A stretch of DNA of 59,915 nucleotides from a virus (IMGVR_UViG_3300025117_000028:1-59915), one strand, 5' to 3'. Positions 13,026 to 30,138 are shown, counted from the stretch's first letter. Notes: a model not told the origin generated them from the sequence alone. Made by a program: numbers and translations.

Positions 13026-13621
13026 CAATCCCTATTGTTTCAGAAACTAAGGCTCGTTATCATACTCTTTATACATTTGAGTGTGAAGAGATGGGGCCAA
13101 TTGTTTTTGCTCCTATGTCCATAAAAGACGTAGAGCAATATCTTTATATATCTAAAGTTTCTTATCCTATTGCTGCAGAATTAGAAGCAGAATTTTTATG
13201 TAAATATATTATAGAGCCAATTTTTACTATAGATAAGATAAAGCCACTTCCTTATGGAGAAACTAAAACCGTCTTCAATATCATGCTCTATCTTTCACAT
13301 CCTAGTGGAGTAAATGATATAATCAATAATATACAAATATATAGGAGCGTTTTTAAAAATAATCTCTTAGACCAAATGTTCTCCTTTATATGTCAGGCTT
13401 TTCCTGCGTATACGCCTGATACTTTAAAAGAAAAAAAATGGCCAGAATTAATTACGTTAATTACTATGGCAGAATTTATTAACGGAGACTTTGAGATTGT
13501 AACATCAGAAACAGCTAAACAAAAAAAACGCAAACCCATATCTGAAGAAAGGATAGTCACAGAAGATCCACGAGAGGAGTACTTAAAACAACATGGCCAA
13601 CAGACCGAGACATCATGCTGA
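13022..13621 (+). CDS. Second tail assembly chaperone-like protein (paralogue of the C-terminal domain of CDS 12018)
   Basis: 'TKARYHTLY..IVFAPMS..KYIIEP..LPYGETKTV' parallels the previous gene; ATGA overlap. Confidence 0.5.
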   Translation: MTIPIVSETKARYHTLYTFECEEMGPIVFAPMSIKDVEQYLYISKVSYPIAAELEAEFLCKYIIEPIFTIDKIKPLPYGETKTVFNIMLYLSHPSGVNDIINNIQIYRSVFKNNLLDQMFSFICQAFPAYTPDTLKEKKWPELITLITMAEFINGDFEIVTSETAKQKKRKPISEERIVTEDPREEYLKQHGQQTETSC

Positions 13622-27300: not shown

Positions 27301-30138
27301 CATAAATATGACATTATTCGTTATGCGATTAGAAACTATTCTCGTATTACACCTAAAGCTCGTGTAATGCTCGAAGCCTTTAGTTCACGCAAGCAGTTAG
27401 GAACTAAAAGTTGTTATCCTGATATGACATTGCCTCCAAATCCTTTCTTAGAAGAATTATATAGAGATTCGGAATTTGGAGATTTTTTTACAGAAGTAAT
27501 GCCTCCTTATTTTTATTTAGTAGGATCTGGAAATCAGAAGAGTGTTATCGAAAAGAAAATTGAAGAGTATCTATCTGATGCCGCAGAAGTTATTAATGAT
27601 AGTGAAGAGACACAAACCAAATTAAAACGTATTCAAGGAAATACAAGTTTATCTCTTGATCCTGAAATGCATGCAAGTAGATTATACGAACAAGATAAAG
27701 AGAAGAAATTAACAACTAAAGATGTAACTTTACAATTATATTCTTTTGAAAACGCTAAAGAATGGATAAAAACTTTAAAAGAAGATCTAACGAATGAATG
27801 TTATATAAAATCTTCTCCACAACGTATGGCTCCGACTTATAAGGTTTATTTCAAAGAGAGAACGTCCGACAAATTTTATTTTAATTTCTTTGATGAATTT
27901 TTTGGTGTTAATGCCATTCGTCGTATTTCTATTACTTCTACAAGAAAGTTCCCCGCTAGTTATGCAGTCATAGAGATATTAAATACTCAAGGCCATTTAA
28001 ATAATAAAGTATTTTGGGGAGCAGATGGAGCTAGAAGTGATGGAGGACATGTAGTCGAGTCTTCATTGATTCGAAACATGAAGAACTATAATACTTCTAT
28101 TACTAATACCTTATTAAAAGATGGAACAGATATTCAAATTAGACTTGGTTATGCTTCTGATCCTGAAGATTTAGAAACAGTATTTAATGGCCAAATTTTT
28201 TCTATTGAAGGAGAAGACGTTCTAACTATCAAGTGTTATTCATATGGTTATGAATTAGCAAGCAAAGAATACAATCCTTATGATGGCCATGAAGATGATG
28301 AAGACTATGATGAAACTTCTGAATTATTAGAATGGTGTTTGACTAGACCAGAAGTAATGCACTTTGGACGTAAAGAACTATTAGATTTCGTGGTCCCAAA
28401 AGGCTTTGGCCTCAATCTGAGACAACGTCTTCTTGGAGGTTTGCAGACAGACCGCGAAGGGAAGATAAGTCAAACAACTTTTAGATTTATTAGTTATCCT
28501 CAAAATGATAATGTATTCGTTGAAGAAATTAGAACAAAATATAGTAGATGGAGTCCGACAACATGGTTTGCAATGGCAGTTCGAGATGGTTCAAGTCTAG
28601 ACTTAGAGTCCTCAGTTCTTTCTATCAAATTCGAAGCTTTTAAAGAATGGTTTAAAGAGTTAGTTGTTCCTTGGAGTGAAGAAATATTTTTAGGACCATA
28701 TATTCCATTCAAACAAACTCTGTGGGATATCATTCAAGAAATGACGCTAAGACATTGCGGAACTATTGCTTCAGTAGTCCCCTACGACGACTACGTCACA
28801 TTGTTTTTTGGAAAACCTAGTTTATTCTATTTTTATAGATCTAGGGATTTATATGATTATATAAGTAACATAGAACATAACAACTTAAAAGAGAGAATAA
28901 CTGGTTCACTTGAAAAAACCAAGAAACAGTTTAGGAGATATCATTATGTGGATAGTATGTCTCATATTGTCAATAATAATATTCGGGCCGATTATTCTGG
29001 CACTTTTACAGAGATAACTGTTTTAACTGCTACTAAAAGAGATGATACAGCGTCGTTTAATGCGGATTATAATGACGAGACAGATGATACTAAAGATGTT
29101 ATTAATGATCCAGGAGATTTTGACCAAATTGCTCCCATGAGATTAAATAGAAATATAGTAGACAACTATATACGTGGGGCTACGATGGGTTTCCCTAATG
29201 TCAGGAATCAGACTATTGGAGAAAGATATGCCTCTTCTTTATTAGCTTTAAGTGCTCATGAGTTATATAAAGGGACTTTAACTCTAATTGGAAATGAAAC
29301 AATAAAGCCCTGGGATTATATGTATTTATACGACTCCTATAATGATATGTACGGAGCCATTCAGGTACGAGATGTTACTCACGTTATTTCCCCGGAAACT
29401 GGATTCGTAACCGAAATTGTTCCAGACATGATTGCTGTAACAAATGACTATGTAACAACTGCTTTGAAAGATGCAATGCTAAATGTTCTTAACCAAATAT
29501 GGTTAGATTCATATATGGAAGAAGCAAAAAGTTGGCAAACTTTGTCATGGGTACATGCCGAACCGGTTGTGAAATCAATAGAGTATGCCACAACTGCTAC
29601 GTTGGCTGTAAAAGCAGGATCATGGATAAGGACAGGAGCTACAAAAGCAGGAAAATGGGCAGAAGGCAAACTCTTGTCGCAGTCAAGAACTAATCTTCTT
29701 TACGGACCTGCTAGACAGGCAGTTGGTCAACACTTGAATGAAGTATCTGAAATGATAGGAAAGGTTGCAGCAAAAGCTCCAAGACTAACAAAGATAGCAG
29801 GTACTCTTGGACGTATCCCAATTAAACATCCGGTTGCAATGATTACAGCTGGTGTTGTAATGGTAGTCTTTGCAGGGGCACTAATAGATTTAGGCAATGA
29901 AGAAAAGACAGCATTTCCTGTCGTTGTTTCACCTTTGATTAAAAATGGAAAACCCTATGTAATAGGTGTTAATGGGTATGATATGAATACATTCCATCAA
30001 CACCTTTCTAAGAAGGTCCAAAAGTTTATAAAAAAATATAATCTGACTGAAGATTTAGCCGACGAATTAATGAGTATCTCTGTGATAGGTATAAGCAATG
30101 ATACATTAACTCAAGTACTTGAAACCCTAGGAAATTAA
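24319..30138 (+). CDS. Baseplate hub-like protein with an embedded lytic transglycosylase (SLT) domain
   Basis: SLT motifs 'IMHES' (E416), 'AFGLLQV', 'LEPETNLKAA'; hub motifs 'IQIRLGY..VFNGQI..LTIKCYSYG' and 'GTLTLIGNETIKPWD..VRDVTHVIS..GFVTEI'. Confidence 0.7.
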   Translation: MAVINSPGIIQINDIHVTIPPTQIEVNVMYRNEKVDVLRSQSELYLRSGYGTVFFRFSLVFQDTKAVNEELIPLVIQSNKTPFFYISNEALRTELVPYLIPNMTETTDSVLYQLSIVGRLLNLKYSSHPQAPGVIVADFSFSLFNYRPFMKQWLYKTHWPTPDEVVNAVRTIENSFERPTKLVPSTSVQIGLGVNGSNPAGLTAFTRSPGSDLMANIEPYQRDKVQLIFRDNIKDTRKKLKEIIDDPKIYGNQTTNPVLSDWWKHYYMHKTYLQDEHTNEPLNHIDQIENKLTIHYKEFANLKEVGFTPRFEENSNTEVSRPDLDITKIDWRLPQFQDLLITAMENACKFKVEDPRPSTLTVDQSGHNIKPTGRPLIRELSKKWNTNGKQWINLVKKIFGSDPRLIPTFLFMIMHESSRPTDKGDRFLVNKKEAKSLGSEYNQAFGLLQVTEIHKKELAKAKIISSVENFYREILEPETNLKAALLVYKQAKNTLNPWQPKESVAIYMRHFDNEVKELLSSTKLVQKETVQKKTVQDFSNELFGDTNDINMTSDGIKISGNELSNNINNIEILYEDFYSTRDKALKRINEDYADSYDQGWRSVYEMMTNQEYLRERGNTSLRNIFYKDHSWEMPPSLVLESVGVSIDNNNLTIPIAGALLATSQHLTTPSARFDLGIHAVPEFEEGELILNQAQIELNNILKLVQEQNISYKYVNKKNSLAISNSILQVANVSQQGEEEGYNWDHVGRVPVVIDSINIISDQRSPNTFILNIVGAFNRTQFEEVEKIENFNLSVEELVSEICPLLIQDVTNIVKSRYKNETTPFDIFWDVAFWKAMSNKFKLPEKSKYSQFLPDISGDYTTTEEEAIQLMGSIFLYFFSLGPFKILEDLTSDTLVELDLYLGVGGLIATIGTGGIAAIIGLLLSIASMATSVHEYLQNFQTKEDLKSYMQFLDKGFIKYPIRDHKDFLVNLGLSSNLIDSRSEDPIMVEDALTHHKYDIIRYAIRNYSRITPKARVMLEAFSSRKQLGTKSCYPDMTLPPNPFLEELYRDSEFGDFFTEVMPPYFYLVGSGNQKSVIEKKIEEYLSDAAEVINDSEETQTKLKRIQGNTSLSLDPEMHASRLYEQDKEKKLTTKDVTLQLYSFENAKEWIKTLKEDLTNECYIKSSPQRMAPTYKVYFKERTSDKFYFNFFDEFFGVNAIRRISITSTRKFPASYAVIEILNTQGHLNNKVFWGADGARSDGGHVVESSLIRNMKNYNTSITNTLLKDGTDIQIRLGYASDPEDLETVFNGQIFSIEGEDVLTIKCYSYGYELASKEYNPYDGHEDDEDYDETSELLEWCLTRPEVMHFGRKELLDFVVPKGFGLNLRQRLLGGLQTDREGKISQTTFRFISYPQNDNVFVEEIRTKYSRWSPTTWFAMAVRDGSSLDLESSVLSIKFEAFKEWFKELVVPWSEEIFLGPYIPFKQTLWDIIQEMTLRHCGTIASVVPYDDYVTLFFGKPSLFYFYRSRDLYDYISNIEHNNLKERITGSLEKTKKQFRRYHYVDSMSHIVNNNIRADYSGTFTEITVLTATKRDDTASFNADYNDETDDTKDVINDPGDFDQIAPMRLNRNIVDNYIRGATMGFPNVRNQTIGERYASSLLALSAHELYKGTLTLIGNETIKPWDYMYLYDSYNDMYGAIQVRDVTHVISPETGFVTEIVPDMIAVTNDYVTTALKDAMLNVLNQIWLDSYMEEAKSWQTLSWVHAEPVVKSIEYATTATLAVKAGSWIRTGATKAGKWAEGKLLSQSRTNLLYGPARQAVGQHLNEVSEMIGKVAAKAPRLTKIAGTLGRIPIKHPVAMITAGVVMVVFAGALIDLGNEEKTAFPVVVSPLIKNGKPYVIGVNGYDMNTFHQHLSKKVQKFIKKYNLTEDLADELMSISVIGISNDTLTQVLETLGN

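Follow-up and report, generated by a model that had tools for sequence, protein, structure and literature searches.

A predicted RNA polymerase encoded in the tape-measure slot of a lineage of contractile-tailed jumbo phages

The window considered here (IMGVR_UViG_3300025117_000028:1-59915; 59,915 nt) covers the first 59.9 kb of an IMG/VR virus record with a length of 190 kb. Three giant genes follow one another in it, all on the plus strand like every other window feature described below: g1 (13593..20006), encoding a protein of 2137 amino acids (aa) whose N-terminal half is variable and whose conserved virion-protein core is interrupted by an intein; g2 (20010..24317; 1435 aa); and g3 (24319..30138; 1939 aa), an enlarged baseplate hub. 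Structural modeling and conserved motifs establish g2 as a very diverged single-chain, two-barrel RNA polymerase (RNAP) fold with hydrophobic ends and an intact DxDxD metal site, and the protein is presumably active as a polymerase. Since this middle gene of the tape-measure slot is predicted to fold as an RNA polymerase, the phage probably delivers a transcription enzyme of its own into the cell through the tail. The trio itself is a conserved block, running from the tape-measure slot to the hub, of the lineage of jumbo contractile-tailed phages that includes Bacillus phage 0305phi8-36 and Acinetobacter phage ME3.

Predicted structure of the middle gene product

The g2 product was modeled with AlphaFold2 (AF2) over aa 200-1320 (model numbering plus 199 gives g2 numbering), with predicted local distance difference test (pLDDT) values of 70-90 in the core. 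In a Foldseek search of the PDB, all of the top 50 matches listed were RNAP beta' subunits, QDE-1, plant Pol V, or the non-virion RNAP (nvRNAP) of AR9, with E values of 4e-4 to 2e-3 and probabilities of up to 1.0. The VIA structure search, which is independent of Foldseek and covered 48,161 representative chains, returned 26 chains with Z of at least 8, all of them two-barrel RNAPs or isolated double-psi barrels. Among these, QDE-1 (Z 10.4, 303 aligned residues), P74 gp62 (Z 9.7), RDR2 (Z 9.2), and P23-45 gp96 (Z 8.9) align over both barrels, across model residues 206-1060. From the structural alignments and conserved columns, the polymerase core can be placed at about aa 207-1257 (20628..23780), with a first beta-barrel region near aa 412-600 and a second barrel with associated helices at aa 931-1257.

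An RNA polymerase core in the middle gene had already been proposed in a preliminary description made from the DNA sequence, and the invariant aspartate triad described next, the AF2 model, and the Foldseek and VIA matches all bear this out.

The polymerase family

Relatives of g2 were reached solely through the g1 core: 141 IMG/VR relatives were found with an alignment of g1 homologues, 80 loci were kept from these, each with a giant gene directly downstream, and their middle-slot proteins were sorted into clusters. The window g2 and a 26%-identical relative from locus L006 (P0011) are linked by hhalign to an 18-locus cluster (probability 99.5%, E 2.6e-23, 890 columns), which links on to further clusters and singletons with probabilities of 87-99.9%. 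An RNAP-type middle gene is thus present in about 34 of the 80 loci, and in these it invariably lies between the tail chaperones and the hub.

An alignment of 22 of these sequences, at 14-24% identity, has five invariant columns: D1036, D1038, and D1040, plus two glycines. R984, P986, K579, and K1174 are near-invariant; K579 falls in the first barrel region, within a beta-rich stretch of g2 (515-591). The catalytic barrel motifs, R984-D-P986 and A-D1036-S-D1038-G-D1040 (22956..23129), lie in a local sequence reading V-Y-M-S-P-M-L ... G-A-D-S-D-G-D-I-I, which resembles the active-site strand of beta' with its N-A-D-F-D-G-D loop.

In terms of sequence, g2 is otherwise an orphan whose family is marked by an invariant DxDxD. 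No match was found by tblastn against 50,697 phage records, by phmmer against the PDB, by a profile of the 22 sequences against PDB sequences, by a word-indexed protein search with either the single protein or a three-sequence alignment, or by pattern scans of IMG/VR and metagenome contigs, and BLASTP of g2 against ME3 gp036 was not significant. An exhaustive phmmer search of 1.8 billion representatives gave one real match, to a 1.5-kb contig carrying a gene fragment of 373 aa; a planctomycete match from the same search was judged spurious. The Pfam RdRP family (PF05183) was not detected in the genome, but the control genomes likewise gave no match, making this result uninformative.

Conservation of the gene trio

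Matches to g1 and g3 were found by tblastn in 0305phi8-36 and ME3, as well as in Bacillus phages WH1, KLEB27-3, and Edson and in Moorella phage MTATph1. The gene order in 0305phi8-36 is sheath, tube, tube paralogue, two "tail chaperonins," gp145 (1930 aa), gp146 (2537 aa, a "hypothetical tape measure"), gp147 (1903 aa, hub or endolysin), and gpV- and gpJ-like genes; according to the GenBank notes, mass spectrometry (MS) detected both gp145 and gp146 in virions. In ME3, gp035, gp036, and gp037 follow the sheath, tube, and chaperone genes in the same order. In both phages the order is that of the window, and the g1 core and g3 hub are homologous. Logan contigs carry further trios (2048/1393/>412 aa and 1292/1400/1790 aa), and on another, two genes of 2138 and 1611 aa precede one of 132 aa that lies at the end of the contig. 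The trio thus co-occurs in relatives, including the 80 IMG/VR loci, which removes the objection, anticipated in the preliminary description, that its genes might not be found together elsewhere.

The middle genes of the two named phages differ from each other. ME3 gp036, annotated only as hypothetical, aligns with g2 and has DHDQD at the catalytic columns. In contrast, gp146 of 0305phi8-36, annotated only as a hypothetical tape measure, lacks DxDxD and is not of the RNAP type. It does contain a canonical DEDDh motif set in mid-protein (L002:16624-24234), with L-D-I-E-T-T-G-L near aa 1222 and H-L-A-R-A-D downstream, on which the record annotation is silent.

In the other 46 of the 80 loci (e.g., L007:6890-11722, L031, L046, and L085) the slot is occupied by an unrelated middle protein, here called type A. 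Its invariant motif is G-x-F-D-x-D-D, followed 26 aa later by R-x-P (D663, D665, D666, R692, and P694 in L007); the protein could be an enzyme of some unknown kind or could hold a polymerase-like site in permuted form. Beyond their C-terminal ends, neither the type-A proteins nor gp146 were linked to the g2 family by hhalign.

Outside the window, at G000:C1:128085-131108 (L089:286-3306, minus strand), an open reading frame (ORF) of 1007 aa has the motifs T-R-N-P and, 60 aa on, S-D-C-D-G-D, i.e., an R-x-P plus DxDGD pattern. It has a homologue in ME3 into which an endonuclease gene appears to be inserted. Sequence searches of Pfam, PHROG, and the PDB gave no match to the ORF, and hhalign did not link it to g2. 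Its motifs make it a candidate for a putative non-virion two-barrel polymerase.

Hydrophobic segments and C-terminal tails

The preliminary description had also pointed to Gly/Ala-rich hydrophobic helices in all three genes and to similar tails in the first two. All seven peptides it quoted occur in the genes to which it assigned them. Six segments stand out with 19-aa Kyte-Doolittle peaks of 1.5-2.3, three in g1, one in g2, and two in g3, and to this extent the description of the helices holds; the N-terminal g2 string, however, is only moderately hydrophobic.

In g1, two Gly/Ala-rich segments at aa 413-431 and 476-494 (14829..15074; hydropathy 2.21 and 1.54) are shared only with the L006 homologue. 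A third, at aa 1020-1038 (16650..16706; 1.85), directly precedes the conserved core, and a segment in this position, often reading A-P-F-L-P-G-A, is kept in 44 of 65 homologues. The N-terminal Gly-rich segment of g2 (aa 13-28; 20046..20093) has a 17-aa maximum of 1.06; its equivalent reaches a hydropathy of at least 1.2 in 12 of 26 RNAP-type relatives. At the other end of g2, a C-terminal module (23976..24275) combines a hydrophobic segment at aa 1323-1341 with the tail motif NNVNVSVFDYSR (1411-1422). The g3 segments are at aa 901-926 (27019..27096; 2.11, with the peak at 907-925) and, C-terminally, at aa 1838-1856 (29830..29886; 2.34).

Of the middle-slot proteins, 24 of 26 of the RNAP type and 13 of 14 of type A have a hydrophobic segment at 60-170 aa from their C-terminus, while just 5% (RNAP-type) and 1% (type-A) of interior windows reach that hydropathy; the conservation of these segments is more than chance. 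These segments and the one preceding the g1 core lie outside the confidently folded cores of g1 and g2, and so are not buried in those soluble folds, which the preliminary description had named as a way in which its reading could fail.

The resemblance between the g1 and g2 tails is partial. Those of the g2 family have a clear common motif, V-N-x-N-x-x-D-x-R, and those of the g1 family have a strand followed by D/E-x-R, so that a strand and the D/E-x-R pattern are shared; a hidden Markov model (HMM) of the g2 tails, however, picks up only 3 of 25 g1 tails at E<0.01, with the window g1 tail at E 0.84. The RNAP-type and type-A middle proteins are linked by hhalign over their last ~110 aa only (probability 40%, E 3e-4), and the last 46 residues of gp146 are linked marginally (E 0.012). 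Homologues of orf146 were reported to align only over their last 60 residues (Hardies et al., PMC2147016). The C-terminal segment and tail may together form a common loading or docking module.

The first gene: conserved core, intein, and N-terminal module

Only aa 1040-1309 and 1710-2137 of g1 are widely conserved, with matches to 83 predicted proteins of the fetched loci. The first of these (16710..17519) is the N-extein of the core, delimited by the 83 matches, the 141 IMG/VR relatives, and the AF2 model of an intein-less homologue; the second (18720..20003), conserved in relatives, is the C-extein, with the tail motif at 2114-2125. Between them is a 400-aa homing intein (aa 1310-1709; 17520..18719) with Cys1, a LAGLIDADG endonuclease, a His-Asn end, and Ser+1 (C1310, H1708-N1709, and S1710, as read from the sequence). 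It matches Intein_splicing, Hint_2, and LAGLIDADG_3 (sub-threshold) in Pfam as well as phrog_36001 and phrog_26446, and by tblastn it matches inteins in unrelated phage genes; most g1 homologues lack the insert. The intein is inserted after E-W-L-P-G; with several residues beside it invariant, a functional site may be present there.

The AF2 model of an intein-less core homologue (L076:10409-12541; 48 sequences) is compact and mainly helical, with a pLDDT of 82.4 and a predicted TM-score (pTM) of 0.80. No solved structural relative of the core was found: the best Foldseek match in the PDB had E 0.23, and the best VIA match, at Z 5.7, covers one helical hairpin only. Its BFVD matches are to its own family only, including a 0305phi8-36 protein; one of these relatives is named [quoted passage not shown] BLASTP of g1 against 0305phi8-36 gp146 was not significant. 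A tape-measure role for g1, proposed in the preliminary description, is not supported, as the conserved core is compact, unlike an extended ruler or coil.

The N-terminal 1040 aa of g1 are shared only with the L006 relative. Within them, aa 1-330 (13593..14582) form a DnaQ-like (DEDD) exonuclease-like module, proposed from motifs and sub-threshold profile matches: an ExoI motif LDIETTGL (15-22), an ExoII-like YNLNFE (120-125) with Glu for Asp, and an ExoIII-like H248...D257. These are kept in P0008 (35% identity), the ExoIII motif as H-x4-D in place of the H-x8-D of the window. Profile scores are sub-threshold and cover ExoI only (RNase_H_2, E 0.013; DnaQ 8h18, E 0.22), and the homologue matches an NCBIfam 3'-5' exonuclease at E 0.005, also sub-threshold. 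The exonuclease that had been suggested for this gene is therefore a candidate from its motifs, with atypical ExoIII spacing and no profile match above threshold. One g1 homologue has an SNase domain, and with the DEDDh set of gp146 counted in, nuclease modules recur in the tape-measure slot.

The hub gene and its predicted wall-degrading insert

The hub assignment of g3 is based on PHROG matches over aa 1263-1716 (phrog_20474, E 1.7e-46; phrog_8809, E 1.7e-32) and on tblastn matches to 0305phi8-36 gp147, the ME3 hub, and a KLEB27-3 baseplate protein. A gp27-type hub domain can be placed at about aa 1250-1716 (28066..29466), matching 22 loci with E values down to 8e-61; conservation over 22-26 loci extends to this domain and to another one at the N-terminus. 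Pfam Phage-tail_2 gave E 0.076 only. Homology of 0305phi8-36 gp147 to gp27 was described by Hardies et al. (PMC2147016). By these similarities, g3 is a gp27-type baseplate hub, with a predicted wall-degrading insert.

The insert is an SLT-like lytic transglycosylase segment at about aa 380-510 (25456..25848). Its match to Pfam SLT (PF01464; E 0.0011) scores 18.9 bits against a cut-off of 21.3; E415-S416 and G446-L-L-Q449 can be read from the sequence, and no homologue of the segment was found in related loci. In its place, 13 of 20 hub homologues have Peptidase_M23, VanY, or M15 domains, which makes a wall-degrading insert a general and exchangeable feature of these hubs. Of the transglycosylase hub first proposed, then, the muralytic hub is upheld by the PHROG and tblastn matches and the peptidase-bearing homologues, while the transglycosylase itself falls below the SLT cut-off.

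Comparison with known systems

Among published cases, the nearest is that of Thermus phage P23-45, whose virion RNAP, gp96 (also found in P74-26, G20c, and TSP4), is fused to the tape measure and is a two-barrel enzyme of known structure (PMC10770324; PDB 8H2M/8H2N). Like g2, it is a single-chain two-barrel RNAP with DxDxD, encoded at the tape-measure locus and accompanied by hydrophobic (membrane) segments; its fold matches that of g2 at the Z of 8.9 given above, over 211-227 residues in both barrels. P23-45 also encodes a second, non-virion RNAP elsewhere in its genome, and the putative second polymerase gene at 128085-131108 fits the same pairing. The two systems differ in that P23-45 is a siphovirus whose RNAP occupies 1200 aa at the N-terminus of a tape measure of 5002 aa, in which a metallopeptidase is present too, whereas g2 is a separate 1435-aa gene between two giants in a contractile-tailed phage; no peptidase domain was found in g2, and no sequence similarity to gp96 could be detected. 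Having both double-psi barrels in one chain is also a feature of QDE-1 and YonO-type RNAPs and of the crAss-like virion RNAP. QDE-1 is the best two-barrel structural match of g2 (Z 10.4-10.9, ~300 aligned residues), again with no sequence similarity.

Giant proteins with interchangeable enzyme modules are a further point of comparison: the polyvalent proteins of phages and conjugative elements (Iyer et al. 2017) reportedly have this organization and are presumed to come into the cell along with the DNA. Here, in contrast, such modules belong to a slot of tail assembly that is fixed, and no Pfam LPD domain was detected in the window genes. The crAss-like enzymes are thought to be packaged in the head, in podoviruses. 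The virion RNAP of one such phage (phi14:2 gp66) is part of a giant ejected virion protein (10.1101/2020.03.07.982082).

The concept of a virion RNAP in the tail slot has thus been published for a siphovirus (P23-45, PMC10770324); for 0305phi8-36-like phages and others with contractile tails, the literature searched contained no paper placing an RNAP in the tape-measure slot. Tail-associated virion RNAPs have been documented for one group only, the long-tailed Thermus phages, and here the polymerase type is found in about four in ten loci of a large, mostly uncultured jumbo lineage. ME3 is a cultured member, which makes the idea testable. It bears on how such phages might start transcription independently of the host, on how a large enzyme might be stored and delivered by a tail, and on the swapping of payloads on a fixed anchor. 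The g1 core adds a conserved domain of ~700 residues whose fold is predicted with confidence and for which no relative has been solved.

Possible roles of the trio

The interpretation favored here, with reasonable though far from full confidence, is that the trio is a lineage block with a polymerase (g2), a protein with a novel core (g1), and a hub (g3), in which the g1 and g2 products are loaded into the tail and ejected. Both would be late products, taken into the tail lumen or hub by way of their C-terminal modules. Sheath contraction would then expel them while the hub enzyme cuts the wall, and the hydrophobic segments would engage the membrane. The injected polymerase could transcribe the first phage genes as the DNA arrives, mirroring the P23-45 enzyme, with the second RNAP-like gene taking over later. 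Co-ejection, a membrane conduit, and transcription-assisted DNA entry, all put forward in the preliminary description, remain hypothetical. T7-like DNA entry driven by transcription is possible, but found no support; Hardies et al. judged it too slow for a genome of such size (PMC2147016).

Several points weigh against tail loading and ejection. Evidence of presence in the virion comes only from 0305phi8-36, whose middle protein differs and is without DxDxD, and direct evidence for packaging or ejection of an RNAP-type middle protein is lacking in any phage. A folded polymerase of ~110 kDa exceeds the tail-tube lumen, which leaves its storage state unexplained. The g2 model as a whole has a mean pLDDT of 57.7 and low global TM-scores, PDB sequence searches gave no link from g2 to any known RNAP, and the exonuclease and SLT assignments fall below curated thresholds. 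Finally, the Gly/Ala-rich segments may serve packing in the tube rather than membrane insertion.

A more far-reaching reading, of rather low probability, is that the slot is a modular cargo cassette in which the C-terminal anchor (hydrophobic segment and V-N-x-N-x-x-D-x-R tail) loads swappable payloads into a contractile tail, and the polymerase is stored in an extended, non-native state, acting as the length ruler, and refolds to an active enzyme only after ejection. The payloads of such a cassette, put forward just as tentatively, would be the two-barrel RNAP, the F-D-x-D-D type, and DEDD or SNase nucleases.

It is also conceivable, though unlikely, that g2 is a working phage RNAP which is encoded in the tail operon without being a virion component, and that its site of action is the cytoplasm, at a late stage of infection. 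The core of the polymerase is globular, virion proteomics has so far not included an RNAP-type member, and phage RNAP genes need not be packaged, 0305phi8-36 orf99 being an example (PMC2147016). On the other hand, the fixed position of the gene in its ~34 loci, the C-terminal segment and tail held in common with the other middle-slot type (although the match to the tail of MS-detected gp146 is marginal, E 0.012), and the presence of a separate RNAP-like gene among the non-structural genes all argue for a virion role, and an enzyme made with the late structural genes would be most useful if carried to the next cell.

Storage elsewhere in the particle is similarly doubtful: the g1 and g2 products could be ejected proteins of the capsid or neck, as in T7, N4, crAss-like, and phiKZ-like phages, with the tape measure encoded elsewhere or forming part of g1. 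This would suit folded enzymes too large for the tube lumen and the compact g1 core (pTM 0.80), and virion RNAPs are packaged in the head in N4, crAss-like, and phiKZ-like phages (PMC10770324). However, from the chaperone-slot genes to the hub no other candidate tape measure was found, tail length led Hardies et al. to give this role to the middle gene (PMC2147016), and the P23-45 RNAP is itself part of a tape measure (PMC10770324).

Least probable is that g2 is a structural ruler or plug, an exapted RNAP-derived fold without polymerase activity: its extreme divergence (one real match in 1.8 billion representatives) would allow this, and the unrelated middle protein of 46 of 80 loci means that polymerase activity is not essential to the slot, but 22 sequences that are only 14-24% identical retain the three catalytic Asp residues, R-x-P, and a Lys in the first barrel region, as would be expected if catalysis is under selection.

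Neighboring genes and other observations

The window has a G+C content of ~35%, and its long ORFs are nearly all on the plus strand. Upstream of the trio is a giant sheath gene (5352..9614; 1420 aa) which matches phrog_16991 (tail sheath) at E 3.4e-48 over aa 950-1418 and so indicates a contractile-tail context. The sheath families match only its last ~470 aa, leaving the N-terminal ~950 aa unexplained. Two tail-tube paralogues follow (9626..11334; 212 and 338 aa), both in phrog_9206, which also contains 0305phi8-36 gp140 and gp141, described in the record notes as tail tube and tube paralogue. The next two genes (12018..13621; 335 and 199 aa) are placed in the tail-chaperone slot by position only, which corresponds to that of orf143/144 in 0305phi8-36 (PMC2147016); no match to them was found in the family searches of the window proteins, and the second (199 aa) overlaps the start of g1. 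Within the trio the gaps are 3 nt (g1/g2) and 1 nt (g2/g3), in agreement with the gaps first described. A baseplate wedge (gpJ/gp6-like) gene (31405..32670; phrog_6, E 1e-25) closes the slot. The original placement of the trio in a tape-measure/hub slot was thus correct, given the sheath, tube, and chaperone-slot genes on one side and the wedge gene on the other.

Past the baseplate genes, at 37203-53227, are further very large plus-strand ORFs, of 1128, 883, 1238, 651, and 1189 aa, plus one of 254 aa; no PHROG match was found for the first (37203-40589; 1128 aa).

The non-structural region of the genome contains a multi-copy family of ~117-aa genes on the minus strand, at G000:C1 100647-101009, 104763-105116, 113707-114060, 114900-115253, 119343-119642, and 136007-136360 (one copy is 99 aa). 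Repeated 11-mers that had been considered as phage promoters belong to this family, and were rejected as such.

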